NCBI GenBank assembly: GCA_050253415.1
Contig: JBFWJC010000004.1
Coordinates: forward strand, 128,001 to 192,000
DNA from: Pedobacter sp.
GTDB taxonomy: Bacteria; Desulfobacterota; Desulfuromonadia; Desulfuromonadales; Syntrophotaleaceae
DNA: 64,000 nt
Reading direction: 5' to 3'
The notes under the pieces were generated by a model that was given only the letters and a program-made list of their open reading frames with translations, had not been told where the DNA came from and ran no database searches. Each line of letters begins with the position of its first letter. Within the stretch, counting starts at the first letter, position 1. This document shows positions 2,550 to 58,162 of the stretch, in pieces. Made by a program: the position numbers and the translations under genes.

Positions 2550-3626
2550 CTACCTCAACTTGAGGGTGGACAAGGCCACCAGTGCAAGGATAATGCTGAT
2601 GATCCAGAAACGAACGATGATCTTCGGTTCGGCCCACCCTTTGAGCTCGAAATGGTGGTGGATCGGAGCCATACGGAAGATCCGTTTTCCCAGTATTTTA
2701 AACGATGCAACCTGCATGATCACCGACAGGGCCTCAACCACGAAAATTCCGCCGACGATCACCAGCACGATCTCCTGCTTGGTAATCACCGCAATGGTTC
2801 CGAGCGCGCCGCCAAGGGACAGGCTACCCACATCCCCCATGAATACCTGCGCAGGATAGGTATTGAACCAAAGAAACCCGAGACCCGCGCCAACCATGGC
2901 CCCACACAGCACCGCCAACTCACCGGCACCCTGCACACTGCTGATCTGCAGGTATTCCGATAGCCGCGCATTGCCGGCCAGATAGGCAAACAACAAATAA
3001 GTCCCCGAGGCGATGATCGTTGGCCCGATGGCCAGCCCATCGAGGCCATCCGTTAGATTAACCGCGTTGCTGGCACCAACAACAACCAGCATTGCGAAGG
3101 GGATGTAAAGCAATCCCAGTTCCGGACGCAGCCCCTTGAAAAACGGCAGAGCCAGCGTAGTCGGATACGGCTGGTAGAAATACAGCATGAGTCCTGCCGT
3201 ACCGGCGATAAGCATCAGCCACAGCATCTTCTGCCGCGCCGAAAGACCGTCGCTGTTACGTTTCTTCACCTTGCGGTAATCATCGACAAATCCTACTGCG
3301 CCAAAACCGACGGTTACCAACAGGGTCACCCAGACATAGATATTGCTCAAATCGGTCCACAGCAAGGTTGGTAAAACAATGGCCAGCAGAATGAGGGTAC
3401 CGCCCATGGTAGGCGTCCCTTCTTTTTTAAAATGGGACTGGGGTCCGTCCTTGCGAATGCTTTGCCCGATCTGCAGACTGGACAATTTGTCGATAAGCCA
3501 GGGGCCAAGAATAAAGGAGATCATCAGTGCCGTAATGGTGGCATAGATAGCCCGAAACGTGATGTACCGGAAAATGTACAGCACTGAAAACTGTTCATGC
3601 AGCGGATAAAGCAGGTGGTACAGCAT
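2550..3626 (-). CDS. mraY: Phospho-MurNAc-pentapeptide translocase
   Basis: [25 protein letters not shown] and MAPIHHHFE motifs. Confidence 0.97.
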
Positions 3627-3637
3627 CCAGACGTCTC

Positions 3638-5029
3638 CTAATGACCGGCGGTCGGGCGCCCATCGCTGGCGCGCAGGGCTTTACAGATTTTTTCCATTGC
3701 CATGCCGCGAGATCCTTTGACCAATACACGGTCTCCGGGACGCAGCAGGTCGCCGAGCAGTTGCACGGCTTCATCATGACTTTTCACTACCCAGACCGAC
3801 TGGGGAGGCATACCGCCCTGCCTTGCTCCGGCAGCGGTATCCTCGGCCCGCTCGCCCAGGAGAATAAGCAGATCGGTACACTTCGATGCATGCAATCCGG
3901 TTTCACGGTGCAAGTCTGCCGCCGCCTCGCCCAATTCCAGCATGTCGCCCAGAACCGCAATGCGACGGCCGCTACCGGGCAGTTCATCCAGCGCCTTCAG
4001 GGCCGCTTTGACGGCCAGGGGGTTGGCATTGTAAAAGTCCTCCAACAGGGTGGCGCCGCTGGCGAGTTCCGCCACCTCCATGCGCCCGGCACAAGACCGG
4101 AAGCGCTCCAACCCTTCGACTATCTGCATGCCACTCATATTCAGGGCATAGGCTGCGGCCGCAGCGGCCAGAGCATTATGCACATTGTAGCGCCCGGGCA
4201 CCGACAGACGCACTGGCCAGTTCCCTTCGGGCAGCACCAGCCGAAAACGCACACCCTGCCCATCCACGGTTACATCTTCGGCGCGAACCTCGGCATCGGA
4301 ACCGCACCCGTAAATCAACCGTCGCACGCCGTTGGCAACGGGCAACTGCAGCACCCGTTGATCATCCCCATTAATAACGGCGGTGCCACCGGGAGGCAGG
4401 GCGGCAAATAATTCGCCTTTGGCCCGAGCCACCCCTTCGAGATTATAAAGCGTTTCCAGATGGGCCGGCCCGACATTGGTGATGATACCAATATCGGGAC
4501 GGCTGATCTCGGCCAGACGGGCAATTTCACCACGAGCACTCATGCCCAGTTCCACAACTGCCCAGCCATGATCTTCTTCGAGTCGAAACAGGGTATGAGG
4601 CAAACCGATAAGATTGTTGAAATTACCCTCGGTTTTTAGACCCGGACCACGCAGAGCCAGAATACCGGCCAGCATTTCCTTGGTACTGGTCTTGCCGGAC
4701 GAACCGGTTACTGCCAAAACCGGCCCGTCAAAATCCTGCCGCACGGCCGCTGCCAGATCACCCAGCGCTTTGAGGGTGTCCGCTACCCGTATAACCGGTA
4801 CCGGCAGACCGGCGATCACTTCTTCGCTCAGGCAAGCGCAGGCTCCTTCGCGCACCGCCTGTCCCATAAAATCGTGACCATCGAATCGGGGGCCACGCAG
4901 CGGCACGAACAGATCGCCGGAACGCAGGGAACGGCTATCGGTGCAAACCCCGGTAACCACACCACTGGCACGCTCAGGTATCAGAGTGCCACCGGTAATG
5001 GCGGCGATTTGATTCAGATCGAGTCGCAT
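3638..5029 (-). CDS. murF: UDP-MurNAc-tripeptide:D-Ala-D-Ala ligase
   Basis: [33 protein letters not shown] and LVKGSRG motifs. Confidence 0.96.
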
Positions 5030-6537
5030 GGTTCCTCCGCCACAAACCTCAGGGCCTCGCGTAATTCCTCGCGGTCATCAAAGTGCAATCGCTGATTGCC
5101 GACAATCTGATAATCCTCATGCCCCTTGCCGGCCACCAGCAGCACATCACCAGTCCGCAGCAGGCTCACGGCAAAGCGAATCGCTTCGCGACGGTCAACG
5201 ATCGCAAGATAGCCGCCTGCAGCGGACTGCCGTGCCTGTTGTTCCGTCCAGGGGCCGGGATAGATACGGCGCAGGCCGACCTCCACCTGCTGCATAATGC
5301 TTAACGGATCCTCGCTGCGCGGATTGTCCGATGTCAAAATCGCCACATCCGATAAACGCGCGGCGACTTCGCCCATCACCGGGCGCTTACTGGCATCGCG
5401 GTCACCGCCGCAACCGAACACGCACAGCAGCCTGCGAGGAGCCAACTGTCGCAGTGTGGTCAAAACGTTTTGCAGAGCATCGCCGGTATGCGCATAGTCC
5501 ACCAGCACCAGGGCCCCACAACCGTTCTCAATACTTTCCAGCCGACCGGGAACCTGCGGTGCGCTGGCAAGGGCTGCGGCGATGGTATCCGGTGCCATAT
5601 TCAAAGCGACACCAACGCCGGCGGCACAAAGCAAATTATGCAAATTATAGTCCCCGACCAAAGGGGAGTTTAAGGCGGCACACCCCAGAGGAGTGCGCAG
5701 CATACCGGAAATGCCGGCAACAGAGATAGAAACATCCTCTGCCGTTACCGTACAGCGAGAGTCATGTCCGCAGCCAACTGCAGAGGGTAGCGCATCGGCA
5801 AGACGCGCGCCGTACGCATCGTCGAGATTAACCACCGCATGCCGGGGAGAATGCTCGCCAAGCCCGGTGAAAAGTCGGCGTTTGGCGTCAAAATACGATT
5901 CCAGATCGCCATGGTAATCGAGGTGTTCCGGAGTCAGGTTGGTAAACACTCCGACATCGAAACGCACCCCGTCAACCCTCCGCTGCTCTAGCGCATGAGA
6001 CGATGCCTCGAGAATCAAAGCATCGGCACCACGGTTGCGAAATTCAGCGATAGTTCGCATCAGATCAACCGATTCAGGAGTCGTATGACTGGACGCCAGA
6101 CGTTCTCCTTCAAATCGATAGTCGACGGTACCCATAACGGCCGGCCGCCGGCCAGAAGCCTTCAGCAACGATTCCACCAGATAGCTGATGGTGGTTTTTC
6201 CGTTGGTTCCGGTTATACCTACTACCAGCATATCCCTGGTGGGATCACCGTAAAATTCAGCTGCCGCCAGCGCCATAGATCGCCGCGCATCCTTCACCAG
6301 CAATCCGGTTATTCCCTGCGGCAATGGACACGGTTCTTCCATGACTACCGCCACAGCGCCCCGGGTCAAGGCATCCTCCACGAACCGGTGACCATCCACC
6401 GTTGCGCCGCGCAGGGCAAAAAACAACCCACCGGGCAGCACCTGCCGGCTGTCGTAATACAAACCACTGATAACACCATCGGCTGGACCGGTGATTGTAC
6501 AGGGGACAAGCATCTGGCAAAGGACGGAAAGTTTCAT
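5014..6537 (-). CDS. murE: UDP-MurNAc-dipeptide:meso-DAP ligase
   Basis: GITGTNGKTT, VDYAHT, DNPR (DAP-specific) and AGKGHE motifs. Start trimmed to MKLSVL. Confidence 0.96.
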   Translation of the reverse strand: MKLSVLCQMLVPCTITGPADGVISGLYYDSRQVLPGGLFFALRGATVDGHRFVEDALTRGAVAVVMEEPCPLPQGITGLLVKDARRSMALAAAEFYGDPTRDMLVVGITGTNGKTTISYLVESLLKASGRRPAVMGTVDYRFEGERLASSHTTPESVDLMRTIAEFRNRGADALILEASSHALEQRRVDGVRFDVGVFTNLTPEHLDYHGDLESYFDAKRRLFTGLGEHSPRHAVVNLDDAYGARLADALPSAVGCGHDSRCTVTAEDVSISVAGISGMLRTPLGCAALNSPLVGDYNLHNLLCAAGVGVALNMAPDTIAAALASAPQVPGRLESIENGCGALVLVDYAHTGDALQNVLTTLRQLAPRRLLCVFGCGGDRDASKRPVMGEVAARLSDVAILTSDNPRSEDPLSIMQQVEVGLRRIYPGPWTEQQARQSAAGGYLAIVDRREAIRFAVSLLRTGDVLLVAGKGHEDYQIVGNQRLHFDDREELREALRFVAEEPCDSI

Positions 6538-6586
6538 AGAATCGCCAATTTTCCTTCTGTGAAGAAAAAAAGTCAAAGGGAATTTT

Positions 6587-8557
6587 TTACGCCGATGGAC
6601 CCAATTTCACCCAAACTTCATCACCATAGCGAATGTCCTGGCCAGGTGATGGAAATTGCTCAATAACTTTACCTGAACCCTTGATCCGGATATTCAGACC
6701 CAGCCTCTCCATAGTCTGCAACACCTGTCTGCAACTCAGCCCAAGACAGTGTGGCATCACAGGCATCTCACCATTGGCAACGCGCTCCGGCTGACTGCTG
6801 CCGTTGGATATGGCCACCACCGTTTCCAGCGTAACCGGCGGCAACGGGGCTTCCATATCGGCCTCGGTCGGGGGTACGCCAAGGTAACGCAGGGCCTGAC
6901 CTGTTATCCGCGAAAACACCGGAGCGGCGACCAGACCGCCATATACCTGGGTCTGCGGTTCGTCGATAACCACCAGGACAACAAGTCGGGGATTGTCCAC
7001 CGGAGCAAAACCGACAAAGGACGCCACCCGTTTGTCTGCGGAGTAGCCACCGGTAACAGGGTCGACTTTCTGCGCAGTACCGGTTTTTCCAGCGACGCGG
7101 TATCCCGGCACGGCTGCCAGGGTGCCGGTTCCCCCCTCACGCGTAACCATTTCCATCATTGCCCGAACCTGGGCTGCTGTCTTTTCGGATACCACGCGCC
7201 GCACGGTTTCCGGTGACCGGTTTTCTACCAATGCGCCACGGTCATCGACAATTTTATTTACAAGATCAGCTTTCATCAGCAGTCCGCCATTGGCGACGGC
7301 CCCTACTGCGCGGGCCAACTGCAAAGCTGTCACGGTCATCCCCTGACCAAAGGATACGGCAGCCAGATCGCCTTCAAACCATAACTCGGGCCTGCGCAAT
7401 TGACCTGAGGTCTCACCGGGAAAATCAACACCTGTTTTTTCACCGAATCCGAATCGGGTCAAATAGTCAAAATAACGCTGACGCTCCAGCATTTTCCCAA
7501 TTTTAGCTGACCCGATATTGGAACTGAGCTTGAGCACATCCGCTACGCTAAGCTGTTCATAAGGATGATGATCATGAATGGTCATGCCACCAACCCGGTA
7601 CGAGCCTTTTTCGCAATTAACCCGCTGAGTCGGCTGTACCACATTTTCGTTCAGAGCAGCCGCTACCAGGAACACCTTAAGTGTTGAACCCGGCTCGAAC
7701 TCATCGCATACGGCGCGATTACGGCGGTTTTTCGACGGGAACCTGCCATAGGCATTGGGATTATAGGTCGGCTGATTGGCCATCGCCAGAATTTCGCCGC
7801 TGTTCGGATCCAACACAACCACGCTGCCGGCCCGCCCCTTGGCTTCCTTCAAGCCGACAGCCAGTTCCTTTTCAGCCAGGTATTGGAGATTGCGGTCGAT
7901 GGTCAAATTGAGGCTGTTTCCATGACTGCCCCCATCCACGACTTTATTACTGGAGCCGAACCCCTTGCGGCGACCATCTTTGGCCGTCACCAGAAATCCT
8001 TCCTGCCCCAGCATCTGGCTATCGTAATACTTTTCCAACCCCTCGAGTCCCCTGGGATCAAGGCCGGTAAATCCAAGCAATTGGGCTGCCAGTTCTCCAT
8101 TGGGATAGAACCGTTGATGTTCCTTGGTAAAAGCAATGCCTTCAATACCAAGCTTGCGAACCCGGTCACTCTGGTCTGGTTGAACCTTGCGTTGCAACCA
8201 CACAAAACTGCGCTTTGAAATCAGTTTTTTACGTAAGGTCGTGCGGGGCAGGTTGAGCGGACGCGCCAGTGCACGCACTGTGGCGTTTACATCACTGATT
8301 CGCATAGGTTCCGCAAAGATCGAATCAACACTGATGCTACGGGCCAATTCAGCCCCATTGCGATCATAGATGGCCCCTCTGCGAGGGGTTAGAGGGATAA
8401 TGCGTTTATACTGCCGCTTGGCGCGGGCGACAGTTTCCTCGCTATCGACGACCTGCAACCAGAACCCCCGCCCCACCACTGCCAGAAAAAACATGGTAAA
8501 CCCGATTCCCATCAGAACCATGCGAATCTTGCTGCTTTTTTCCGGCGACATTTTCAT
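6587..8557 (-). CDS. ftsI: Class B penicillin-binding protein FtsI with C-terminal PASTA domain
   Basis: N-terminal TM helix, SxxK (STLK), SxN (SSN) and KTG motifs; PASTA-like C-terminus. Confidence 0.94.
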   Translation of the reverse strand: MKMSPEKSSKIRMVLMGIGFTMFFLAVVGRGFWLQVVDSEETVARAKRQYKRIIPLTPRRGAIYDRNGAELARSISVDSIFAEPMRISDVNATVRALARPLNLPRTTLRKKLISKRSFVWLQRKVQPDQSDRVRKLGIEGIAFTKEHQRFYPNGELAAQLLGFTGLDPRGLEGLEKYYDSQMLGQEGFLVTAKDGRRKGFGSSNKVVDGGSHGNSLNLTIDRNLQYLAEKELAVGLKEAKGRAGSVVVLDPNSGEILAMANQPTYNPNAYGRFPSKNRRNRAVCDEFEPGSTLKVFLVAAALNENVVQPTQRVNCEKGSYRVGGMTIHDHHPYEQLSVADVLKLSSNIGSAKIGKMLERQRYFDYLTRFGFGEKTGVDFPGETSGQLRRPELWFEGDLAAVSFGQGMTVTALQLARAVGAVANGGLLMKADLVNKIVDDRGALVENRSPETVRRVVSEKTAAQVRAMMEMVTREGGTGTLAAVPGYRVAGKTGTAQKVDPVTGGYSADKRVASFVGFAPVDNPRLVVLVVIDEPQTQVYGGLVAAPVFSRITGQALRYLGVPPTEADMEAPLPPVTLETVVAISNGSSQPERVANGEMPVMPHCLGLSCRQVLQTMERLGLNIRIKGSGKVIEQFPSPGQDIRYGDEVWVKLGPSA

Positions 8558-8877
8558 CGTATGATGATCACCTGATGTGCTTGGGGATAATGAAGATTCA
8601 GCTTATTACTGGCTATACGTTCGAGGTGAGCCGGGTTTTTAAGCGTTGCAACTTCCAGGCGCAGGCAATTTTCGTCGCGCTGCAGTTCCAGCAACTGCGT
8701 TTCGCAACTGGAGATGGCATAACCCAACTCAATAAGCTGGCTGCACGACCAGATGTAAAAAACACCGGCACCAACCAGAGCAACCAGAAAAACCAGGAAT
8801 TGGGTTAAAGAGAAACGTTGCCAGAAAGCGCTGCTGCTGCTGACACCGGGCAGCGCACGTTGCGTGGAATAAGACAT
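8554..8877 (-). CDS. ftsL: Cell division protein FtsL
   Basis: Small protein with one TM helix and a coiled coil, between rsmH and ftsI. Confidence 0.85.
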   Translation of the reverse strand: MSYSTQRALPGVSSSSAFWQRFSLTQFLVFLVALVGAGVFYIWSCSQLIELGYAISSCETQLLELQRDENCLRLEVATLKNPAHLERIASNKLNLHYPQAHQVIIIR

Positions 8878-8925
8878 AACACACCTCCAGTCATATCAAG
8901 CCAGCCGCATAGGCGGCAAAAATCC

Positions 8926-9870
8926 TTAAAGACGCCGAATCGCCCTTAATACCGCACTGCGCGCCCGGGGATTCGCCTCTATTTCAGCTTCACCGGCCCG
9001 CAAACCCTTGCGGGTCAGCAGTTCCACCTCAGGGATTCGATTACAAACGCAGACCGGCAGCCCCGGCGGGCAGGTGCAAACCTGAATCTGGCTGCGAAAA
9101 AATTGTTTAACGATGCGATCTTCCAGGGAATGAAAACTGATCACAGCCATTCTTCCGCCAGGCTTGAGAAGCGCCATGGCACGCTGCAAACCTTCCCGCA
9201 GACTATCCAACTCGGCATTGACATGAATACGCAAAGCCTGAAAAACACGCGTCGCCGGGTGAATACGTGAAGGGACCCGCCCCTTGGGCACGGTATCACG
9301 TACCAACTCGGCCAAATCCCGGGTCGTCAACAACGGCGTTTCAGCCCGCACCTGGTCGATACGCCGTGCAATACGGCGAGCATACCGTTCTTCACCGTAT
9401 TCCCGAAAAATTCGTGTCAAATCATCGATGGACATGGAGTTGACGACATCCGCCGCAGTCATACCGGTCGATGTGTCCATGCGCATATCGAGAGGCGCGT
9501 CGGATTGAAATGAGAACCCCCGCCGGGCCGTATCGAGCTGAAAAGACGACACGCCGAGATCGAGCAGAATGCCGTCCACGGCAGGAATGCCCAGATCGCT
9601 CAGAATGCGGTCGGCATCGGCAAAATTTCCATGACGCAACACAGCCCGATCGCCAAAGGGAGCAAGTCTGCGAGCAGCGGCCTCAAGAGCTTCACGGTCG
9701 CGATCGAGACCGATCAGTACGCCGTCCGGGGCGGTTTTTTCGAGAATCAGATAGGCATGGCCTGCCCCCCCGACCGTACCATCGAGAAAGACCTCCCCCG
9801 ATTGCGGATGCAAGCACTCCAGGACCTCCCCGGGCATCACTGAATAGTGCTGAAATATTTCTTCCGCCAT
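8926..9870 (-). CDS. rsmH: 16S rRNA m4C1402 methyltransferase
   Basis: DGTVGGAGH, DLGVSS, PLDMRM, FHSLEDR and NPRARSA motifs. Confidence 0.96.
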   Translation of the reverse strand: MAEEIFQHYSVMPGEVLECLHPQSGEVFLDGTVGGAGHAYLILEKTAPDGVLIGLDRDREALEAAARRLAPFGDRAVLRHGNFADADRILSDLGIPAVDGILLDLGVSSFQLDTARRGFSFQSDAPLDMRMDTSTGMTAADVVNSMSIDDLTRIFREYGEERYARRIARRIDQVRAETPLLTTRDLAELVRDTVPKGRVPSRIHPATRVFQALRIHVNAELDSLREGLQRAMALLKPGGRMAVISFHSLEDRIVKQFFRSQIQVCTCPPGLPVCVCNRIPEVELLTRKGLRAGEAEIEANPRARSAVLRAIRRL

Positions 9871-9873
9871 GGC

Positions 9874-10326
9874 CTAAAATCCTAAGTTGTAAAGAGCCTG
9901 CGACTCGGTCTTGAGTAAATTCTCCGCTTGCTTACGCATCTCAGCGTGCATGGCTCGATTCCAGATCATGATCTTATTGATGGAACCAACCACCACGATT
10001 TCGCGAATTTCCGACTCCAATCCCGCATAGCAACGCTGTGCTTTGGTCAACTGAATGCGTCCCTGTTTGTCAAACGGGCATTCGATCGCCGGTGAGATAA
10101 GGGCCAGATTGATGGCGTCTTTCAAAGGACTGGCCTCCATCGCATTGACTTTTTCCAGAACCTTTTCCCACTCCTGGAAGGGATACGCCGCCAGCCCGCC
10201 ATCGTTCTGGGTGACAATAAGACGCTCATCGGAAAAAACAGAGCTCAGCACATCCCGAAACTTGGCCGGAATGCTCGCCCTCCCTTTCGCATCGATCGCG
10301 TTATTGAACTCACCCTGAAATAACAT
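9874..10326 (-). CDS. mraZ: Division/cell wall cluster regulator MraZ
   Basis: Two DxxGR repeats (DAKGR, DKQGR); first gene of the dcw cluster. Confidence 0.93.
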   Translation of the reverse strand: MLFQGEFNNAIDAKGRASIPAKFRDVLSSVFSDERLIVTQNDGGLAAYPFQEWEKVLEKVNAMEASPLKDAINLALISPAIECPFDKQGRIQLTKAQRCYAGLESEIREIVVVGSINKIMIWNRAMHAEMRKQAENLLKTESQALYNLGF

Positions 10327-10372
10327 TAGACGCCCCAGGTCCAAATTGACACGTTTTTACACTTTGTGGGCA

Positions 10373-48875: not shown

Positions 48876-49382
48876 TCTTTTGTCCGGGGCCGCGCCTGCG
48901 GCCCCGGGACCCGACTCAAACATTCCCCCTTGCCCGCCTTTTTTCCGGCCCGGAAAATAATCAACACGCACACGTATCCGCCAGCTTTTTTCTCAACACT
49001 CGGTGCAGTGCTATCCAAATGCCGGCACTTTTCACCTACCCAAGTTATGTCGTTTCCGGTTATCGGCTGCGTTAATGATTGATGTCGCCTCGCTGCCCCC
49101 TATTATCATCAACAGGCTTATGATGGCATACACCATGAACGGTAGCATTGCAAAGCTCGGAGATAACATGGCTACCCCAAGAAAATGTCTGCGGGGATCA
49201 ACATCCTTATACGGCAAGAGAAGACGTATGAATTAATCGGAAAGAAAGGGATAAGGGAGGGTATAAACGATGGATTAAACACCGCTCGAAAAAACCGCTC
49301 GATTAAACAGAGCGGTTATCCCAAGTCGGCAGGCGACATGAAAATAGTAAAAAAACCCATTCAAAATCGCCATCAGTGCCTG

Positions 49383-49559
49383 CTACTCTTCAAGAGAAAT
49401 AGCGTCATGGGGACAAGCCGGAATACAAATCCCATCCAAATCGCATTTCTCATGATCGATGACGGCTTTGCCATCCTGCAGCGTAATGGCCCCCACGGGA
49501 CAAGCTTTGACACAATTGCCTGAACCGCTACAAAGAGTTTTGTCGATAGTAATTTTCAT
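49383..49559 (-). CDS. Small dicluster-type ferredoxin (58 aa) with non-canonical ligands; absent from the ORF track
   Basis: Manual translation: MKITIDKTLCSGSGNCVKACPVGAITLQDGKAVIDHEKCDLDGICIPACPHDAISLEE*. GGAG RBS 7 nt upstream of the ATG. Confidence 0.88.
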   Translation of the reverse strand: MKITIDKTLCSGSGNCVKACPVGAITLQDGKAVIDHEKCDLDGICIPACPHDAISLEE

Positions 49560-49856
49560 AGAAATACTCCGTAATGTTGCGTGACTTGCCAGCTATCCTA
49601 AAAGATGTAAATCAAACGGTCAATGGGGATTATAGGGAGGGCGCCCCCTGAGACATTCTACAGGCACATGCCGGGCTGTAAAAAACACCGCGAAACAGCG
49701 CTTTCAGGATAAAAGAATCAGGTCCGGACAGGCCTGGACAGGCAAACGATGCCTCGGCAAGGGAAAATTCATCGCCTCTCTTCGTAAATAATAATTGACA
49801 ATTTTCCAGCCATTGATAATCTGCTCTAAATTAAAACATTGTCTTTATTCAGAAAA

Positions 49857-50153
49857 ATGAAAGTAATATCTATGATACGCAGCGACACGGTTATTTCCCT
49901 GAGCCAGGATGCGACCTACCAGGATATGGGAGAAAATGAACCGGCGGTTATTTTGCAGCTTAGCACCGGAAGGCTCTTTACCTGCAACCTGACCACACGC
50001 TGCTTCCTTGATCTTTTGTCTGGTCCATGTTCCTTGGGCGACGCTGTCGATCAACTACTTAAAACGTTTGATGTGCCGCGTGAAAAACTGGAACGGGATC
50101 TCATAAAACTGGCAGGACAGCTTCTGGCCGCCGGTCTGATACAGCTTAACTGA
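49857..50153 (+). CDS. PqqD-family RiPP recognition element (lasso B1-like)
   Basis: ~95 aa; pattern AVILQLSTGRLFTCN...FLDLL...LLKTFDVPREKLERDL..LAGQLLAAGLI matches the PqqD/RRE family. Overlaps the next gene by one base (TGATG). Confidence 0.85.
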   Translation: MKVISMIRSDTVISLSQDATYQDMGENEPAVILQLSTGRLFTCNLTTRCFLDLLSGPCSLGDAVDQLLKTFDVPREKLERDLIKLAGQLLAAGLIQLN

Positions 50154-50596
50154 TGCTTCCATGGATATTGCGGATACATATCCGCCTTGTTACCCTGGTT
50201 ATTCCTTTGCTGGACCGAATGCTCCCAACCCCGCGTCTGGTGCGCCTGCTGGCAAAACATGACCTGTGGCACCCTTATCGGGGCATTCCGGCCGACACGA
50301 TCACAAAATATGTCCATACCGCCCTGCGCAAGCCCCGTTGGATGAAGCGTCGGGCCTGCTATCGACTCGGGCTGACCATGAGCCACTTCCTGCACCTGGC
50401 CGGGAAACCAGTCGTACTGCACTTTGCCATTGCCCCACCCAGCTGCGATGCCATGCGACTGCACGGGCACTGCTGGGTCACCCTTGACGACCGAGCCATC
50501 ACCGCTCCGCCTGAACCTTCAACCGGCATGCGAACCTTTGTCCGGTTCAATATGGGCAGTGGCAGCCCATTTACCGCAAATCCAAAACAACCGTAG
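50153..50596 (+). CDS. Lasso peptide B2-type leader peptidase (transglutaminase-like Cys protease)
   Basis: ACYRLGL (catalytic Cys) and HGHCWV (cf. AHAW) motifs, 147 aa, directly after the RRE gene. Confidence 0.82.
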   Translation: MLPWILRIHIRLVTLVIPLLDRMLPTPRLVRLLAKHDLWHPYRGIPADTITKYVHTALRKPRWMKRRACYRLGLTMSHFLHLAGKPVVLHFAIAPPSCDAMRLHGHCWVTLDDRAITAPPEPSTGMRTFVRFNMGSGSPFTANPKQP

Positions 50597-50650
50597 CAGC
50601 CACAAATTTTGTGCGCATACCCTAGCCCCTTACATCACAGGAGTCAGCCC

Positions 50651-50764
50651 ATGGAGAGCACACCCCAGGAATACCAGGAACCGACCTTGGAAGAGCAGGA
50701 AACCCTGCAGGAAATTACCGAAGGCGTCGCGATGGTGGTTTCCGGAGCCCCGGACCCGACCTAG
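50651..50764 (+). CDS. RiPP precursor peptide with lasso-type leader (37 aa); absent from the ORF track
   Basis: MESTPQEYQEPTLEEQETLQEITEGVAMVVSGAPDPT*. AGGAG RBS, YxxPxL motif and Thr at -2 before Gly. Confidence 0.85.
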   Translation: MESTPQEYQEPTLEEQETLQEITEGVAMVVSGAPDPT

Positions 50765-50814
50765 AAGACGTGCTTTATGACGATCACGTACCCACCCGGA
50801 GCAAAAGTGCTCCC

Positions 50815-50940
50815 ATGAGCAGCTAACAGAACTATCAGGAACTGTTTATGGGAGAGCTGGTAATTACCGGCGGCACTGCTCCGGCAGCATCGAATCGGCC
50901 TGAAACCTTTTCATCTGTAAAATGCCGGTATCCACGGTAA
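50815..50940 (+). pseudogene. Degenerate second precursor copy
   Basis: MSS*QNYQELFMGELVITGGTAPAASNRPETFSSVKCRYPR*. Aligns at codon level with the precursor leader; in-frame TAA at 50824. Confidence 0.55.
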
Positions 50941-51035
50941 CGCTTTTCAGAACACCCTCTTGTTGAGGCCGATTCACACCGGAACTTCCCGCTCCCCAGA
51001 AGTAATGTCCATCCATCCCCGGCCCGGATGTAACA

Positions 51036-52085
51036 ATGCCATCCGGATCGGGTTTGGTTTTAACGGAACAGCCCCCTTTGCGCTACTACGACATTCACAA
51101 TCTGTCACTGCGAGTTGAATCCGAGGATCAGGGACTTTTTTCAGCCATGGAGTCTCTGACAGCCGGTTTTTTCAGCCTGCCTGCATCTCCCCCTACGGAT
51201 AACAGTTTCATCCTGCGGGGACAAAGCGTTGTCGGCAGGGAAGAATTGCCTCTTCCCGACGAGCGCAGCTATCCCCTTTCGTTTGCCGGGACACCGGATA
51301 TCGGCCTGCCGATCAGACTATTGGTAAAACCACCGCACGAGCGCGTCTGGTTGCAACGGGATACCACCGTAACCCGCTGTGATTTGGGAAGACGCCAGGC
51401 GGAAGCCGTCGTCGTCCAGGGCCACTGGCCTTCATGGGGCTTCCAGACTCTGATCCCGCTGTTGGCGGAAGCGCTTGGCCGGCAGGACATGTTTCTGCTG
51501 CACGCTGGGGCGAATCTGTGGCCCGACGGTCGTTCATGTGTGCTGTTTTTCGGTGCCAGCGGCACCGGTAAGACCACGACGGTTCTGTCCCTGGCCTGCC
51601 AGGGCTGGTCACTACTCTGCGATGACGCAGGTTTTCTTACCACCCAGCAAGGCCAGCCCAGTCTGTGGGGACTGCCGCGAGCGAGCAAGGTTCACCATCA
51701 AACATTTCAACTGCTGCCATCCCTGTCTAAAATACCCCGCAAGGCCATTGCCGGCAGCGAGGAATGTCTGGTCAGCTTTCGTGATCTACCACATGTGTCC
51801 CCCCGAGAACGCATCCCGGTTCGCGCTATTTTTCTTCTGCAACCGCGCAACACAATACAGCACTTCTGCAGTCCTCTCACCGCAACGACCGTGTTGCCAC
51901 GCCTGATTCAAGGAAATATGAGGGTTATCGACCCCAACGCAACAGATAATGCCGGGAGGATGTTTAAAACTCTGAGCATCTTGTGCAAAACAACCCCTTG
52001 TTACAGTCTTTCCGTTGGGCCGGACCTAACGACCCTGCCAGCAGTCATACAAGCCTTGCCTGCGTCGAAGTTCTCCGCATGTTGA
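51036..52085 (+). CDS. HPr-kinase-like P-loop kinase (RiPP-cluster type)
   Basis: FLLHAGA, Walker A GASGTGKTT and LLCDD motifs. Confidence 0.82.
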   Translation: MPSGSGLVLTEQPPLRYYDIHNLSLRVESEDQGLFSAMESLTAGFFSLPASPPTDNSFILRGQSVVGREELPLPDERSYPLSFAGTPDIGLPIRLLVKPPHERVWLQRDTTVTRCDLGRRQAEAVVVQGHWPSWGFQTLIPLLAEALGRQDMFLLHAGANLWPDGRSCVLFFGASGTGKTTTVLSLACQGWSLLCDDAGFLTTQQGQPSLWGLPRASKVHHQTFQLLPSLSKIPRKAIAGSEECLVSFRDLPHVSPRERIPVRAIFLLQPRNTIQHFCSPLTATTVLPRLIQGNMRVIDPNATDNAGRMFKTLSILCKTTPCYSLSVGPDLTTLPAVIQALPASKFSAC

Positions 52086-53140
52086 GCCCGATGGACAGCT
52101 TATTCCTGGCCTTGTGCGACCCTGAAAGCATCGGCCCATCGTCAAACTGCAGGTTTTCAACGCAAGACCTGATACCGGCAGAATTGTGCCGAAAGGCCAC
52201 CTTTCACGGGGTTCACGGCCTGCTGCTGGCTAACCTGCAAAATCCAGCTTGGCAAGATAGCGCATCCAGAGAATGGTACGAGGCCATGCAGAAAGAGCTG
52301 ACGCCCATTGTCCGTGCTGACAGGGCGCGCGGTTTGGCACTGCGAGCCCAGGGAGAACGCATTTTACAGGTTTTGCGCGCCAGCAATATCCCGGTGCAAT
52401 TGATCAAAGGCGCGGATTTTGCGGACCATCTCTATCCTCGACCTGAATTGCGCAGTTTTACGGACATCGATCTGTTGGTTCGCCCGGAAGATTTCCAATC
52501 CGCACAAGACCTGTTACTTGAATGGGGTTGCCAACAACACCACACCGGCACGCTGAAACATGCGGCAACTTACGGTGAAACGGCCTTTACCAGCAAGGTT
52601 GCCGGCATGCAGCTGCGCGTGGAACTGCACTGGAACCTGGTAAACTCGCCTGCGTTACAAAAAGCCATGAGCGTCACTTTGAACGACCTGCTGGATGAGC
52701 ACGGGACATTGCGCCATGAAGGTCGTCTTCTGCTCGCCGCCATACATGCCGGCACCGGACATCAGTTCGATCGTCTGAAATTCCTCCTCGATCTACGGCA
52801 GATTTTTCGTCGTCTCAGTAAACAGTCCAATCTGCCATGGCTTTCCGAACGAATTACCCGAACCGGCTGTCGGCAGGTGATGGCAACGGCCTGCTGGCTG
52901 GTAGAAAATCTTTTTCAATGCAACGATGCACGCCAGTCAAGACTCCATCTCGGGATAAAGCACCCAGCCCTTCTCTGGAGGTGGATTCTGTCCCCGGGGT
53001 TGGTACTACGAGCCCACCAGCCGAACATAGCTGACGCCTTGCGTAAAAATCTCTACCGACAGCACCTTAAAAATGATCCAGTTGGCCCACCCCCCATGTC
53101 TGCGGACACTGAGCCCGCCAAACAACGAGGACCGTTGTGA
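52079..53140 (+). CDS. Nucleotidyltransferase family protein (lasso-cluster-associated type)
   Basis: LIKG...LYP..ELRSFTDIDLLV, VELHW and LLDL motifs. Overlaps both the kinase and radical SAM genes. Confidence 0.82.
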   Translation: MLSPMDSLFLALCDPESIGPSSNCRFSTQDLIPAELCRKATFHGVHGLLLANLQNPAWQDSASREWYEAMQKELTPIVRADRARGLALRAQGERILQVLRASNIPVQLIKGADFADHLYPRPELRSFTDIDLLVRPEDFQSAQDLLLEWGCQQHHTGTLKHAATYGETAFTSKVAGMQLRVELHWNLVNSPALQKAMSVTLNDLLDEHGTLRHEGRLLLAAIHAGTGHQFDRLKFLLDLRQIFRRLSKQSNLPWLSERITRTGCRQVMATACWLVENLFQCNDARQSRLHLGIKHPALLWRWILSPGLVLRAHQPNIADALRKNLYRQHLKNDPVGPPPMSADTEPAKQRGPL

Positions 53141-54597
53141 GAGTCTTACTGATTGCCCCGACGCCCCCTGCCTGCCATTGGCCGCAAGGCGTATTTTTCT
53201 ACCCGGTGGTCCCGACAGAACTGGCCCACTGTGCAGCGCTGCTGCGCCAACACGGACATCAAGTACATCTCGAACAACGCGAAATCAGCCTGCTGCAGGA
53301 AAAGTTCGACTGGACGAAAGCGGATGCCCAGTTTGAAGCTTTACTGCTAAAATTCTTACCGGAACTGGTGGTCTTTTTTACCCCGACCGCATCGGCTGAT
53401 GAAGCCTTTCGTTTGGCCGATATAACCCGATCGTTTCTGGGGTCCTCCGCAAACATCCTGCTGTGTGGCCCCCATGCAACAGCGCTGCCGGAACAAACCC
53501 TCGCAGACTGTCCGGTTCTGGACGCGGTCATGGTCGGCGAATGGGAATGGACCCTGCTGGAGGCCGCGGAAAGGGGGCTAACCCCTGGTATCGCAGGCCT
53601 TCGATGTCCGACAGCGCCTCAAAAAGGCTGCATACCGCGACCGGCCTGTACCGAACTGGATAGTTTGCCTATGCCGGCGTGGGATCTGTGCGACATGGCC
53701 TATATCACCAACCGGCATCGTTGGCTGATTCGATGGCTTCCTTTACGGACCATCAATCTGCGTACCTCCCGCGGTTGCCCCAATGCCTGCAACTTTTGCG
53801 CTGCTCCGCTGACGGCCGGGGCCGGTGTCCGTTTCCATTCCGTGGAATACGTAACGGAAATGCTTGCTTACGCATTGCAAATCTATCCGGTCGAAGCGGT
53901 ACTGTTTGAGGATGAAACGTTTGCCGCGGATGAGTCACGTTTGCGGCAGTTGTGCGAAACGATACAAACACGGGGATGGCATCGCCGCCTGCAATGGGCC
54001 TGCTGCCTGCGCACCGACCAGGCGCGCCCCGACCTGCTGCGCGCAATGAAGGCCGCCGGCTGCATCCAGGTTGAATACGGATTTGAAACGGCAAGCAACA
54101 CGCTGCTGCAGGCCATAGGCAAAAATACCACCGTCGAGCAAAACCTTGCCGCCGCCCACCACACCAGAGAAGCTGGCCTGCGTGTTTACGCCAATATCAT
54201 GTTCGGGCTTCCCGGAGAAACGGCCATGGACATGCGCAACACAGTCAATTTTATCCGCGCCATACGCCCCGAAGTCATCTCCGCCTCCGCGATGGCCCCG
54301 TTCCCCGGCACAGCATTGTTTCGCGGCTTGAGCGCGGCGCAAAAAAAACGTCTGCAATGGGGAACGTTCACCTATCCGGATCAGTTTCGTTCCGGCTTTA
54401 ACCCCACGGCCATGACCGATGCACAATGGCGGAAGAAATACCTTCAGGTGCAGAAACACTTCATCAAGCCTCTGATATTACGGCAACTGCTGCGCGATGC
54501 GGAAAAGGAATCATCGGCCAATATCCAGCATTGGCGCAAACGATGGCGCCGTTTCTGCCGCCGGCACCCACTGAAAGCCTGGCGCCTGCCGGTTTAA
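53137..54597 (+). CDS. Cobalamin-binding radical SAM enzyme (class B methyltransferase-like)
   Basis: N-terminal B12-binding-like domain (CGPHAT, VGEWE), TSRGCPNACNFC (CX3CX2C), YGFET and FGLPGET motifs. Confidence 0.9.
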   Translation: MRVLLIAPTPPACHWPQGVFFYPVVPTELAHCAALLRQHGHQVHLEQREISLLQEKFDWTKADAQFEALLLKFLPELVVFFTPTASADEAFRLADITRSFLGSSANILLCGPHATALPEQTLADCPVLDAVMVGEWEWTLLEAAERGLTPGIAGLRCPTAPQKGCIPRPACTELDSLPMPAWDLCDMAYITNRHRWLIRWLPLRTINLRTSRGCPNACNFCAAPLTAGAGVRFHSVEYVTEMLAYALQIYPVEAVLFEDETFAADESRLRQLCETIQTRGWHRRLQWACCLRTDQARPDLLRAMKAAGCIQVEYGFETASNTLLQAIGKNTTVEQNLAAAHHTREAGLRVYANIMFGLPGETAMDMRNTVNFIRAIRPEVISASAMAPFPGTALFRGLSAAQKKRLQWGTFTYPDQFRSGFNPTAMTDAQWRKKYLQVQKHFIKPLILRQLLRDAEKESSANIQHWRKRWRRFCRRHPLKAWRLPV

Positions 54598-54766
54598 ATC
54601 TGCCCCGGCGCTCCATTCACATTCAACGACCCTGCCGCAACCGTTGCAGATCTCAAACCGTTTCCAATTTCGGATTGCCAAACCGAAGGTTAGTGCGTAT
54701 GTTTTCAGGTTGAAGTACTTTGCGGATACATGGAAAGCGCCCGCTGCCAACCCAAGGAGATCCCAC

Positions 54767-55783
54767 GTGCGTATCCTTATCGTCACCCCTGAACAACCAC
54801 GCACGACAGGCAACTGGGTTTCAGCGCGGCGCCAACAGAAAGGACTACAAGCCCTTGGCCACGACGTTCATATCGTCGAAGCCGGAGAATCCGTCCAGCA
54901 ACTGGAAGGGGTCATTGAAAAGTACGCCCCCGATGTAGTGAATCTACTGCATGCTTTTCGCAGTGGCAAACAATGGCTGGCATGCAAACAAGCCGAACGC
55001 ATCCCCATGGCAGTCACGCTGACGGGCACCGACGTTAATCATGGACTTGCACATTCGGAACAGAGTCCGACAATTCTGACCGTCCTGAACCAGGCTCAAG
55101 CCGTCATTACCATTAATGCCCTGACCGCCATGGCGTTGCAGAGGCGTTACCCCGACCTGGCCTTGCGCCTGCACCACGTAGCACCTGCCATCGATCCCGG
55201 CCACGAGCCTTATAGCCTTCGCCAGAGACTGGAGATGCCACAGGACTGCGTACTATTCCTGCACCCTGCCAGTATCCGCCCCGTAAAAGCAAACCTGGAA
55301 CTGCTTGAAATGTTCCTGCCGGTTGCCTCCGCCGAACAGTCCTGCCGGCTGGTTTTTTGCGGACCGATGCTTGATGCTGTTTATGGAGATCGCTTTTTTA
55401 ACGCCATGAAACTATGCCCATGGGCCCATTACGCAGGAGAAATCCCGGCAGGTGCCATGCCTGCCGCCATGCTGGATGCAGACATCATCATCAACAACTC
55501 GATCAGTGAGGGCTTTTCCAACACCCTGTATGAAGCGGCCTGTCTTGGGACCCCGATATTGGCCAACGATATTCCCGGCAACATGGTTGCTTTTGAATCA
55601 GGCCGGCAGGGCCTTTTATACGACACGCCGCAAAGGTTCGTTGAGCAAGCGCTGACTATGGTACGCAATCCGGAGTTGCGCCGACAGCTCTCACAACCAC
55701 AGCATGCGCCGCGTTCACCGCAGGAAGAAGCCCGGCAACTCGAAAAAATCTTTTTAGCACTCGTAGCACAACCCCGATTGTAA
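54767..55783 (+). CDS. GT4 (GT-B) glycosyltransferase
   Basis: GTG start with AAGGAG RBS; TGNWVSARR, LHAFRSG, TGTDVN, IRPVK and SISEGFSNTLYEA motifs. Confidence 0.85.
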   Translation: MRILIVTPEQPRTTGNWVSARRQQKGLQALGHDVHIVEAGESVQQLEGVIEKYAPDVVNLLHAFRSGKQWLACKQAERIPMAVTLTGTDVNHGLAHSEQSPTILTVLNQAQAVITINALTAMALQRRYPDLALRLHHVAPAIDPGHEPYSLRQRLEMPQDCVLFLHPASIRPVKANLELLEMFLPVASAEQSCRLVFCGPMLDAVYGDRFFNAMKLCPWAHYAGEIPAGAMPAAMLDADIIINNSISEGFSNTLYEAACLGTPILANDIPGNMVAFESGRQGLLYDTPQRFVEQALTMVRNPELRRQLSQPQHAPRSPQEEARQLEKIFLALVAQPRL

Positions 55784-55849: not shown

Positions 55850-57244
55850 TCAAATCTCGGCTTCGATCTTAGCCCCGATGCTGGATTGAACCCGACGCAA
55901 ACGAACGCCAAGAAAAACGGCCGAAATACTCAACCCGACTATGAGACTTATCCAGAATCCTCTTGCCCCCATCGGGACGCCCCAAACAGAGGTCAGCGAA
56001 AGGCTGTAACCCAACGGCATCGCAACCCCCCAGAAAGCAACCATTATCAAGACCAGGGGCATACGGGTATCTTTGTAGCCGCGCAGAGCCGCAACAGCAC
56101 CAACCTGGTAAGCATCGGAGACCTGATAAAGAGCATTCAGATAAAGCAGCCCTACGGCAATGGCAACAACCTGGCTGTCCCGCGTATACAAGCTGGCAAT
56201 CTGTTCGGCGAACAGCATGGTAAAACCAGCCGTCATGACTGCAACCAAAGAATTAATCAGTAATCCCGTTCGGCATATCCGTTTTGCAAGAGCGAACCGT
56301 TTGGCCCCGACCGCATGCCCCACCCGGATGGTGATAGCGCTGGCGATACTCAGGGGGACCATAAAAACCGTAGCTGAATAGTTAAGGGTAATCTGGTGAG
56401 AAGCAACGACCAACGCTCCCAACGGTGCCAAAAACAGGGCAATCAAGGCAAAGACACTCGATTCGACCAGCAAGGAGAAACCGATGGGCAATCCGAGCCG
56501 AAGAATCTGCATGCCACCTTCCTGCCCACAAGGTCGGGTAAAATCAAAACAATATGTGGCGGCATAGGCCCTGCCCCGTAAAATTGTCATCACCATACAG
56601 CCACACATAAACCATAGCGTAAGCGCGGAAGCCCATCCGCAGCCGACACCTCCGAGTGCGGGAAATCCGAGTTTGCCATAAATCAATACATAATTGACGG
56701 CGACGTTAACCGGTAGACTGGCCACCCCAATAAGCATGCTAGGGCGCACCAGACCTAATCCTTCGCTTAGATTCCGCAAAAGAAAAAACACAGCGGCTGG
56801 AGGCAGTCCCCATGCAATGGCCTTGAGATATCGAGAAGCAATTAAAGAGACCTTGGGAACAACTCCCATCATTGAAAACACCATATCGGCATGACGCAAG
56901 AGCAACATCGCCACCACAACCATCGGCAAGGCTACCCCTATGCCGCGTCGTACCAGCGGACCAGTTTGGTCGGTATGCCCAGAACCATGTAATTGCGCAA
57001 CCATTGGCGTAATAGCCAACAAAATCCCGTAAAGAAACAGGGAGACAGGAATCCACAGACTGCCGCCGATGGCCACCCCTGCAAGGTCCGTAGCACTGAC
57101 CCTGCCGGCCATGATCGTATCGGTAAAAGCCAGAGCCTGTTGCGCCAGATGAGCGACCAGGATAGGGCCGGCAAGTATCATCAGGGCTCGGCCTTCAATC
57201 TTAAAACCAGGCATGTGCGCCCACTTCATAGGAAACACAGTCAT
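55850..57244 (-). CDS. MATE family efflux transporter (NorM-like)
   Basis: Polytopic membrane protein with DTIMAG, LGGVGCGWAS, RVGHAVGA and LRGYKDT motifs. Confidence 0.92.
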   Translation of the reverse strand: MTVFPMKWAHMPGFKIEGRALMILAGPILVAHLAQQALAFTDTIMAGRVSATDLAGVAIGGSLWIPVSLFLYGILLAITPMVAQLHGSGHTDQTGPLVRRGIGVALPMVVVAMLLLRHADMVFSMMGVVPKVSLIASRYLKAIAWGLPPAAVFFLLRNLSEGLGLVRPSMLIGVASLPVNVAVNYVLIYGKLGFPALGGVGCGWASALTLWFMCGCMVMTILRGRAYAATYCFDFTRPCGQEGGMQILRLGLPIGFSLLVESSVFALIALFLAPLGALVVASHQITLNYSATVFMVPLSIASAITIRVGHAVGAKRFALAKRICRTGLLINSLVAVMTAGFTMLFAEQIASLYTRDSQVVAIAVGLLYLNALYQVSDAYQVGAVAALRGYKDTRMPLVLIMVAFWGVAMPLGYSLSLTSVWGVPMGARGFWISLIVGLSISAVFLGVRLRRVQSSIGAKIEAEI

Positions 57245-57418
57245 ACACCCTCAAAATGAAAAGCTCTCGGAATGCGGGAGGCGGTATCACAAGATACAAC
57301 GGTTTGTCGTTTGACTTTCAAACATGTAACCTTTACAAACTAGTATTTATGAAGGCAATGTCCTTACTTCGATTTTGCCCATCATCCAACGACACTACCA
57401 TGCAGCGAAAGACAAATT

Positions 57419-58162
57419 ATGGCGAAAAGTCCAATGAATTTTCGTAAAAAAGCACTTCACCTGCTCTACCGCATCCAAGGCAAGAGAGTCTTGCACTTCC
57501 TCCATTTAGGTAAAACAGGTGGGACCGCTGTAAAACACGCCCTAATGCAGGCTCCTTCGGGAAGAAGGCATGTCCTCTACCTACATTCTCACAATGTCAA
57601 ATTGGAAGATATTGCAAAAGGGGAAGGTGTCTTCTTCTGCGTACGTAATCCAACGGCACGCTTTATCAGCGGATTTTACAGCCGTCAGCGTCAAGGTCAA
57701 CCCCGCCATTTCAGCCCATGGAGCCCCGAAGAAAAAAGTGCGTTTGAATTTTTCAGCACCCCAAACCAGTTAGGAAAAGCTCTTTCCTCGCAGGATCTTG
57801 AGCTAAGGCAACGGGCGATCAATGCCATGAAAAACATTCAACACATCAACTCCTCATACTGGGACTGGTTCAAGGATGAAGAATACCTGAGATCACGCCA
57901 GTCAGATATCTTTTTCATAGGCTTTCAGGAACAGTTGACTGAAAACTTCGAAATTTTGAAAATACGCCTCGAAATTCCCGCAAACATCGAACTGCCAAAA
58001 GATGACTTCCATGCTCATCGAAATCCCATACACCTGGATACATCCCTTGAAGCACAGGCCGTTAAAAACATCAGGGACTGGTACCAGGATGATTACCGAT
58101 TCATCAAACTATGTCGTGAAATCGTTGACCAACAGAAAGTGGAGGAAAAGACCATCCGATGA
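57419..58162 (+). CDS. Sulfotransferase family protein
   Basis: FLHLGKTGGT (5'-PSB-like) and VRNPTARFIS (3'-PB-like) motifs; C-terminal Y..DY. Confidence 0.75.
   Translation: MAKSPMNFRKKALHLLYRIQGKRVLHFLHLGKTGGTAVKHALMQAPSGRRHVLYLHSHNVKLEDIAKGEGVFFCVRNPTARFISGFYSRQRQGQPRHFSPWSPEEKSAFEFFSTPNQLGKALSSQDLELRQRAINAMKNIQHINSSYWDWFKDEEYLRSRQSDIFFIGFQEQLTENFEILKIRLEIPANIELPKDDFHAHRNPIHLDTSLEAQAVKNIRDWYQDDYRFIKLCREIVDQQKVEEKTIR

Follow-up and report, generated by a model that had tools for sequence, protein, structure and literature searches.

Precursor gene and peptide

The window analysed here is a stretch of 64,000 nt from Pedobacter sp. (GCA_050253415.1, contig JBFWJC010000004.1, positions 128,001 to 192,000, forward strand). 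A 37-aa ORF, designated A, lies in it between the gene of a lasso-type leader peptidase (B2) and the gene of a putative kinase (K). The features of A and its immediate surroundings are as follows.

50639-50643, + strand: AGGAG ribosome-binding site, 7 nt 5' of the ATG of A, read from the sequence
50651-50764, + strand: ORF of precursor A, ATG at 50651 and TAG at 50762-50764; translation of 37 aa, MESTPQEYQEPTLEEQETLQEITEGVAMVVSGAPDPT
50651-50722, + strand: leader of A, 24 aa, with Tyr-17, Pro-14, Leu-12, Thr-2 and Glu-1 in the translation
50723-50764, + strand: predicted core of A, GVAMVVSGAPDPT, 13 residues, with the stop codon
50741-50743, + strand: codon TCC of Ser7
50799-50814, + strand: small hairpin GGAGCA-AAAG-TGCTCC, 3' of the precursor gene

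Both marks of a lasso leader, the YxxPxL motif and the penultimate Thr, are present in A. The numbering of the leader assumes cleavage after Glu24 (Glu24/Gly25), which is the predicted site, and the resulting spacing of Tyr-17, Pro-14, Leu-12 and Thr-2 is what we take to be the usual spacing of lasso leaders. The core has Asp11 as its sole acidic residue, followed by a tail of two residues. Two papers describe the motif [Y/W]xxPx[L/V/I/A/F/Y] as the one bound by discrete lasso RREs (PMC13381572) and the penultimate Thr as conserved in lasso leaders (PMC10368454).

The region around the hairpin (50762-50835) folds at -14.5 kcal/mol with a modest z of -1.7. In the relative G001 the same hairpin lies 3' of both precursor copies, and it may have a role in transcript stability or attenuation. 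Between 48800 and 51200, neither promoter-like sites (5, where shuffles average 2.5 with sd 1.6) nor terminator-like sites (2, where shuffles average 3.0 with sd 1.9) were clearly above shuffles. The whole precursor unit, with its ribosome-binding site, gene and hairpin, is duplicated in tandem in G001 (locus L007, 2459-2835, compared with window 50597-51040), and the window holds one copy. Between A and K lies a spacer of 271 nt that matches the G001 spacer at 234 of 271 positions, and it is thus better conserved than the precursor coding sequence (79 of 111 against the second copy in G001). This spacer contains a 30-aa ORF at 50848-50940.

Genes of the cassette

By Pfam and NCBIfam scans, which identify B1, B2, N and R clearly and K weakly, B1, B2, A, K, N and R form a co-directional and tightly coupled operon. 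The genes around A, and the glycosyltransferase gene that adjoins them, are listed below.

49839-50153, + strand: B1, discrete RiPP recognition element (RRE, PqqD-like), 104 aa; Pfam PqqD 44.6 bits, E 1.8e-11
50153-50596, + strand: B2, lasso-type transglutaminase-like leader peptidase, 147 aa; Transglut_core3 29 bits (cut-off 26)
51036-52085, + strand: K, putative HPr-kinase-like P-loop kinase, 349 aa; weak family matches and a conserved P-loop
51983-53140, + strand: N, PF14907 nucleotidyltransferase, 385 aa; Pfam NTP_transf_5 129.6 bits (cut-off 31.2)
53137-54597, + strand: R, B12-binding-domain radical SAM enzyme, 486 aa; Radical_SAM 71.2 bits, B12-binding 32.1 bits (at the cut-off)
54644-55783, + strand: GT4 glycosyltransferase, adjoining the cassette; Pfam Glycos_transf_1

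B1 and B2: B1 has weak NCBIfam matches to lasso PqqD chaperone models, under their cut-offs, and its stop codon overlaps the start codon of B2 (TGATG). B2 scores 35.9 bits with the NCBIfam model lasso_biosyn_B2 (cut-off 33), and at least 93% of 20 orthologues retain its Cys69 and His106. The two leader-handling components of a lasso pathway, a PqqD-like RRE and a transglutaminase-like Cys peptidase, are both present.

K: The P-loop GxSGxGKTT is kept in at least 93% of 18 orthologues, and the neighbours of K in the Atlas are clusters of HPr kinase or ScmC type. The family matches are PEPCK_ATP (E 4.5e-5) and HprK_rel_A (E 2.4e-8, far under the cut-off), and the orthologue in the relative G060 matches Hpr_kinase_C (E 1.7e-5). 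All of these lie below the curated cut-offs, so that K is only weakly assigned as HPr-kinase-like.

N and R: The TDxD motif of N is kept in at least 93% of 22 orthologues. With the listed GTG as its start codon, N would overlap K by about 100 nt, which leaves this start uncertain; the stop codon of N overlaps the start of R (GTGA). The CxxxCxxC motif of R is invariant in 24 sequences (motif kept in at least 93% of orthologues). R combines a cobalamin-binding domain with a CxxxCxxC core, which are the domains of B12-dependent radical SAM methyltransferases. No meaningful match among solved structures came from sequence searches with B1, B2, K or N.

Flanking genes: The cassette is followed by the GT4 gene, an oppositely oriented MatE gene and a sulfotransferase gene, and is preceded by an HlyD/AcrB efflux pair. 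The GT4 gene reaches 372 bits with NCBIfam NF038229, 'GPMC system family 4 glycosyltransferase' (cut-off 400). It is present in G001 and absent from the cassettes of G060 and G008, which have other flanks; the GT4, MatE and sulfotransferase genes are therefore placed outside the cassette and were rejected as pathway parts. The GT4 gene is possibly a local accessory or a member of another system. It may belong to a Geobacter/Pelobacter-type system that includes the MatE and sulfotransferase genes at 55850-58162. A 112-aa ORF at 49185-49523 was likewise rejected as a cassette member; it has no family match and is conserved only in G001.

Conservation of the cassette

Close homologues of B2 occur in 4 of 60 relatives of the same order (G001, G008, G010 and G060), with identities from 95 to 53%. 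The order B1-B2-A-K-N-R recurs in G001, G008 and G060, and the contig of G010 ends beside the precursor. The cassette is flanked in G060 by an NAD synthase gene and tRNA/rRNA-modification genes, and in G008 by MacB-type permease genes and a U32 peptidase gene.

An alignment of R was used to scan species-representative genomes and gave 52 loci. Those whose R belongs to the same clade (at least 465 bits, or split) are taken as the related loci, 27 in number, and their gene content was read with profiles built from Desulfuromonadales proteins. B1, B2, K, N and R are all found in 21 of the 27, and B1 was likewise detected in 21. The order B1-B2-(A)-K-N-R is kept in 20 of the 21 complete loci, with (A)-K-N-R-B1-B2 in L032, and none of the flanking ORFs scanned in them (of about 395 aa or more) is a cyclase. 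The other loci are partial. L024 and L029 are cut by contig ends. In L040, B1-B2-A-K and R are 8 kb apart, and the former reach the edge of a contig. L020 lacks N and has A, K and R. In L033, A immediately precedes R on a 6-kb contig without K and N, and L015 has N and R only.

The hosts include Pelobacter, Desulfuromonas, Geobacteraceae, Brocadiaceae, Phycisphaerae, Sedimentisphaerales, Planctomycetaceae and Verrucomicrobiota, so that the cassette spans Desulfuromonadales, Planctomycetota and Verrucomicrobiota. The genes that flank it vary between loci. We regard B1-B2-A-K-N-R as a self-contained set of six genes. In the Planctomycetaceae MAG that carries L015 (7210-9896), the N-R pair adjoins parB and a full asnB, and B1, B2, K and a detectable precursor are all missing from that locus; the leader-handling genes therefore need not accompany R and N.

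The precursor family and its core pattern

Short ORFs homologous to A lie between B2 and the kinase gene in 25 loci of three phyla, often in 2-8 tandem copies. Because they hold the same place in all of these loci, the ORF of A is more than a chance frame, and the comparison confirms it, at the level of sequence, as a genuine precursor-peptide gene.

The collection comprised short ORFs with the motif [YWF]xxPx[LIVMFA] up to 2.5 kb upstream of K. The Tyr and Pro are thus present by construction, and the family core was set to start 17 residues after the aromatic residue. Five ORFs were dropped as pieces of larger frames (window 48765, L012 5613, L017 4654, L018 4276 and L040 2473), and two further precursors and three from called proteins were added. 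The final set holds 67 precursors from 25 loci and 3 database proteins; since the sequences are interrelated, counts over the 67 overstate their independence.

The core pattern holds across the three phyla. Thr-2 is found in 52, Glu-1 in 49, Gly1 in 46 and Pro4 in 33 of the 67 precursors. Position 5 is Val or Ile in 36/67, and position 6 is Val in 46/67, the others having Thr, Ser, Gly, Pro, Ala or Ile. Ser or Thr occupies position 7 in 56/67, usually with Val6 and Pro4 before it. In the 11 remaining cores the hydroxyl residue is not exactly at position 7, and the count rises to 63/67 for positions 6 or 7 and to 67/67 for positions 5-9. Thr7 is found in most cores of Planctomycetota and Verrucomicrobiota, and Ser7 stands at a fixed distance of 24 residues after the leader Tyr. 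Core lengths are mostly 7-15 residues, and three cores end at residue 7.

Acidic residues follow no such pattern. Asp or Glu is present at positions 7-9 in 15/67 cores, with a tail of at least 7 residues in 2/67, and 33/67 cores have no acidic residue at all. The cores of the closest relatives, GTVPVVSGAPVQG and GIAPVVSGAPAQV of G001 and those of P0002-P0004, lack Asp and Glu. By the aligned cores, Ser/Thr7 is the only conserved core feature and the sole one under selection. Asp11 and Thr13 of A are incidental because neither the closest relatives nor the family pattern keeps them. Of the two residues first put forward as targets of tailoring enzymes, Ser7 agrees with the conservation of Ser/Thr7, and Thr13 is not supported, since C-terminal residues are variable and some cores stop at residue 7.

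Long arrays of precursors occur in some loci (L019 5640-6763; L030 5537-6879; L022 6594-6935), among them a Phycisphaerae locus with 8 tandem copies and a Verrucomicrobiota locus with 7. Two Brocadiaceae precursors have a C-terminal extension with KGGCF beyond the usual short core.

Absence of a lasso cyclase

Two further marks of a lasso pathway are lacking here, namely the cyclase C (PF00733) and a core with Asp or Glu at positions 7-9 and a tail for threading. A search for PF00733 (Asn_synthase, the lasso cyclase family) gave no match in the genome that holds the window. This genome has a completeness of 100% and a contamination of 1.25%, and it was searched except for 4,535 bases. The same search was positive in 11 of 14 control genomes. 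A genome with no Asn-synthase-like protein has no lasso cyclase, and its only B2 homologue is that of the window itself. Asparagine is presumably made otherwise in this organism, for example by the tRNA-dependent route.

The related loci agree with this finding. Of 169 non-cassette flanking ORFs of at least 300 aa that were listed, those of at least about 395 aa from the cassette loci were scanned (102 of 103, the exception being one 2021-aa ORF; those of 300-395 aa were left aside). The 102 contained a single Asn synthase, namely a full AsnB that includes glutamine amidotransferase domains. This enzyme is of housekeeping type, and it lies in L015, where B1, B2 and K are missing. No cyclase was thus seen beside the cassette among the ORFs scanned.

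By gene content and core sequence, the pathway of A is not that of a lasso peptide, as it has no cyclase and no ring-competent core. The original prediction of a lasso-type leader joined to a core unfit for a canonical lasso is thereby borne out by the lone Asp11, the cyclase-free genome and the many non-acidic cores of the family. A more speculative part of it, an unthreaded Gly1-Asp11 macrolactam made by some other enzyme, finds its sole support in the presence of both residues in A. Such a ring has next to no chance of being the product: the genome holds no Asn-synthase-like protein, the cassette holds no amide-forming enzyme, Asp11 is missing in the closest relatives (GTVPVVSGAPVQG, GIAPVVSGAPAQV and P0002-P0004), and about half of the family cores (33/67) offer no acidic residue for ring closure. 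Since the cassette lacks a ring-forming enzyme, the product is most likely a short linear peptide.

Comparison with known systems

LPPs: The closest published system is that of the LPPs of Bacillota, encoded by lppA-K-B-S-D-N in Paenibacillus alginolyticus (Popov et al., Nat Commun 2026, PMC13381572). In this system LppK polyphosphorylates Ser3 of the core to give a linear peptide, the pathway comprises an RRE, a kinase and an NTP transferase and is cyclase-less, and the unphosphorylated precursor is cut poorly. The LPP pathway and the cassette share a discrete RRE for a YxxP leader, an HprK-like kinase (weakly assigned in the cassette), an NTP transferase and the lack of a macrolactam cyclase. 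A linear product is predicted for both, and the kinase target of the LPPs is one Ser near the core start.

The two also differ. The leader peptidase of the LPPs is a SipW-like signal peptidase I, whereas that of the cassette is a lasso-type B2, and no S26-type peptidase matched among 13 window proteins scanned. An MsbA-like exporter is part of the LPP clusters and a radical SAM enzyme is not, whereas the cassette has a conserved B12-domain radical SAM enzyme and no conserved exporter. In the LPPs the target is Ser3 of a long core (45 aa in the case studied), and the cores of the cassette have 7-15 aa with Ser/Thr7. The LPP leader consensus is YxxPxVLxHQxIxFETxxS, of which A shares the YxxPxL part only. 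Finally, LPPs are described as restricted to Bacillota (PMC13381572), in contrast to the Desulfuromonadales, Planctomycetota and Verrucomicrobiota of the cassette. Judged by peptidase, exporter, radical SAM enzyme, leader and phyla, the cassette is not an LPP system in the published sense.

Paeninodin and pseudomycoidin: These clusters resemble the cassette in the split B1/B2, the YxxPxL / Thr-2 leader, the HprK-like kinase and the NTP-transferase-like enzyme. In contrast, they have a cyclase C, a core with a ring-closing Asp or Glu and an ABC exporter, and the cassette lacks all three. Their target is the C-terminal Ser and they are described with no radical SAM enzyme, whereas the cassette has Ser7 and R. 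In pseudomycoidin, the terminal Ser is phosphorylated by the kinase PsmK. The phosphorylated peptide then receives one or two hexoses, for which the NTP-transferase-like PsmN is required, and the D134A/D136A mutant of PsmN is inactive (PMC6993621). PsmN and LppN are likened here to N as NTP transferases, with membership of PF14907 established for N alone. The cassette resembles both lasso and LPP systems in the handling of the leader and probably in phosphate chemistry.

HpnJ and AprD4: The hopanoid-associated HpnJ and AprD4 share with R a B12-like domain and a radical SAM core. However, their substrates are not peptides, and R belongs to neither family, with scores far below the cut-offs.

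A full-text literature search returned no description of a cyclase-less cassette of B1/B2 with K, N and a radical SAM enzyme, although the paeninodin survey and the LPP supplements may list such clusters. PF14907 is rarely named in the literature searched, where one mention concerns phosphonate clusters. The cassette is apparently an undescribed and widespread variant of the lasso/LPP-type pathways. Leader recognition and cleavage by B1/B2 have so far been treated as parts of lasso biosynthesis; here they would serve a conserved and compact cyclase-less pathway of at least three phyla, with anammox bacteria and metal-reducing Desulfuromonadales among its hosts. Together with the LPPs reported in 2026, the cassette suggests a broader group of linear peptides whose modification goes through phosphate. 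The members of this group would share the kinase/nucleotidyltransferase pair as a module and could exchange the peptidase and the extra enzymes. Genome mining by lasso leaders or by B2 alone could mislabel such clusters as lasso peptides. On the other hand, mining tools that require a cyclase, as RODEO does, would miss them. As a single residue (Ser/Thr7) is conserved, the cores are very short and the genes number six, the catalogue makes the chemistry cheap to test.

Proposed pathway

It is likely, on the gene content and on analogy with these systems, that A and the cassette B1-B2-A-K-N-R use lasso leader handling without a cyclase to yield a linear peptide that is phosphorylated on Ser7 and decorated by N and R. 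The gene set and its conservation, the intact catalytic motifs, the missing cyclase and the pattern of the cores are observed here; the chemical steps, their order and the cleavage site are inferred by analogy. B1 would bind the YxxPxL leader, and K would phosphorylate Ser7 on the full precursor. Successively, N would extend the phosphate with a hexose or a nucleotide, as in pseudomycoidin, and R would modify the phosphate appendage or a neighbouring carbon. B2 would then cut after Thr-Glu to release a linear 13-residue peptide, the core GVAMVVSGAPDPT with its modification on Ser7. Asp11 and Thr13 would have no conserved part in the pathway.

For the first step, the predicted complex of B1 with the precursor scored 0.50, where the best of 3 controls reached 0.02; at least 87% of contacts are shared between runs, and the partner has a pLDDT of at least 55. 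The mark used for such predictions is reached by 116 of 157 solved complexes and by 2 of 215 mismatched pairs, and scores of 0.60 or less are held by only 18 of the passing solved complexes and by both passing mismatches. The prediction weakly suggests that B1 binds the leader of A. As similar RRE-leader complexes have already been solved, the score may reflect likeness to them rather than binding.

For the kinase step, the conserved hydroxyl residue at position 7 can also be read differently. Its phosphate could be eliminated to give dehydroalanine or dehydrobutyrine, which would then be reduced, methylated or captured by a nucleophile. Kinase-then-elimination chemistry is that of class III/IV lanthipeptide synthetases. 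In one variant of this reading, the N-terminal amine freed by B2 would be the nucleophile and would close a 7-residue ring with no amide-forming cyclase; seven residues is the smallest ring of lasso peptides, and Gly1 is present in 46/67 cores. Elimination is nevertheless very improbable, as the cassette contains no lyase-like gene, the characterised relatives keep the phosphate on the peptide and extend it, and some cores have Ser/Thr at position 5, 6, 8 or 9 or a start other than Gly. It is a similarly remote prospect that K activates Ser/Thr7, that the N-terminal amine left by B2 (usually that of Gly1) joins residue 7 in a non-amide 7-residue macrocycle, and that R finishes the link. Such a macrocycle would be a second, unrelated route to rings of lasso size without an ATP-dependent cyclase.

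The favoured linear phosphopeptide has its own difficulties in the order of the later steps. LppK did not accept Thr as a substitute for Ser (PMC13381572). Since many cores have Thr7, K would need a wider specificity, or Thr7 would be used differently. LppN showed no activity in the heterologous host used (PMC13381572), and the role of N is therefore uncertain even in the best-studied relative. Moreover, R may not depend on K and N, because L020 lacks N, L033 has A and R only on its short contig, and L015 has N and R only. A strict chain from K to N to R is thus counted against by L020, by L033 and by the rejection of Thr by LppK.

Role of the radical SAM enzyme

None of the best NCBIfam matches of R is at its cut-off: HpnJ gives 150.8 bits (cut-off 577.6), the PhpK family 116.1 and ApyD 113.5 bits. 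AprD4 gives 98.1 bits (cut-off 500), and the RiPP maturation C-methyltransferase model TIGR03975 gives 58.3 bits, below its cut-off. Among solved structures, the best relative is 6fd2 (PDB), the aminoglycoside diol dehydratase AprD4. When the R-like proteins of all loci are placed in one tree, those of the cassette are monophyletic, and their sister clade consists of the proteins of L035, L037 and L038 (32-34% identity), which come from Margulisiibacteriota, WOR-1 and an unclassified bacterium. All three sister loci are of polysaccharide type: they encode UDP-galactopyranose mutase, flippases of Wzx type and glycosyltransferases of families GT1, GT2 and GT9, and they contain no B1, B2, K or N.

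We lean towards a sugar as the substrate of R because its nearest relatives outside the cassette lie in polysaccharide loci and because AprD4 and HpnJ are among its best matches. On these grounds R is tentatively proposed to remodel the sugar that N would attach to phospho-Ser7, an assignment more apt to be wrong than right.

The main alternative is that R is a cobalamin-dependent peptide C-methyltransferase that acts on Val5/Val6 or on Pro4, with K and N acting separately on Ser7. It takes up the original prediction, in which the three Val residues were candidate methylation sites. This is rather unlikely. The B12-binding domain and radical SAM core of R would suit such an enzyme, as would the below-cut-off matches to the RiPP enzymes ApyD and TIGR03975, and Val6 (46/67) and Val/Ile5 (36/67) are frequent in the cores. 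However, no Val is invariant, and position 6 is also filled by Thr, Ser, Gly, Pro, Ala or Ile. The stronger matches are to sugar-acting enzymes, HpnJ and AprD4, the latter being a dehydratase by its NCBIfam name and not a methyltransferase, and the sister of the cassette clade lies in polysaccharide loci in all three cases examined. C-methylation is further favoured by distant relatives of R that lie beside a possible precursor, three of them in tandem in L046. In this locus (2688-10338, from an Anaerocolumna MAG) the three tandem B12-domain radical SAM genes adjoin a short ORF with YEKP and an Ala/Gly-rich C-terminus, and it may be a different RiPP cluster.
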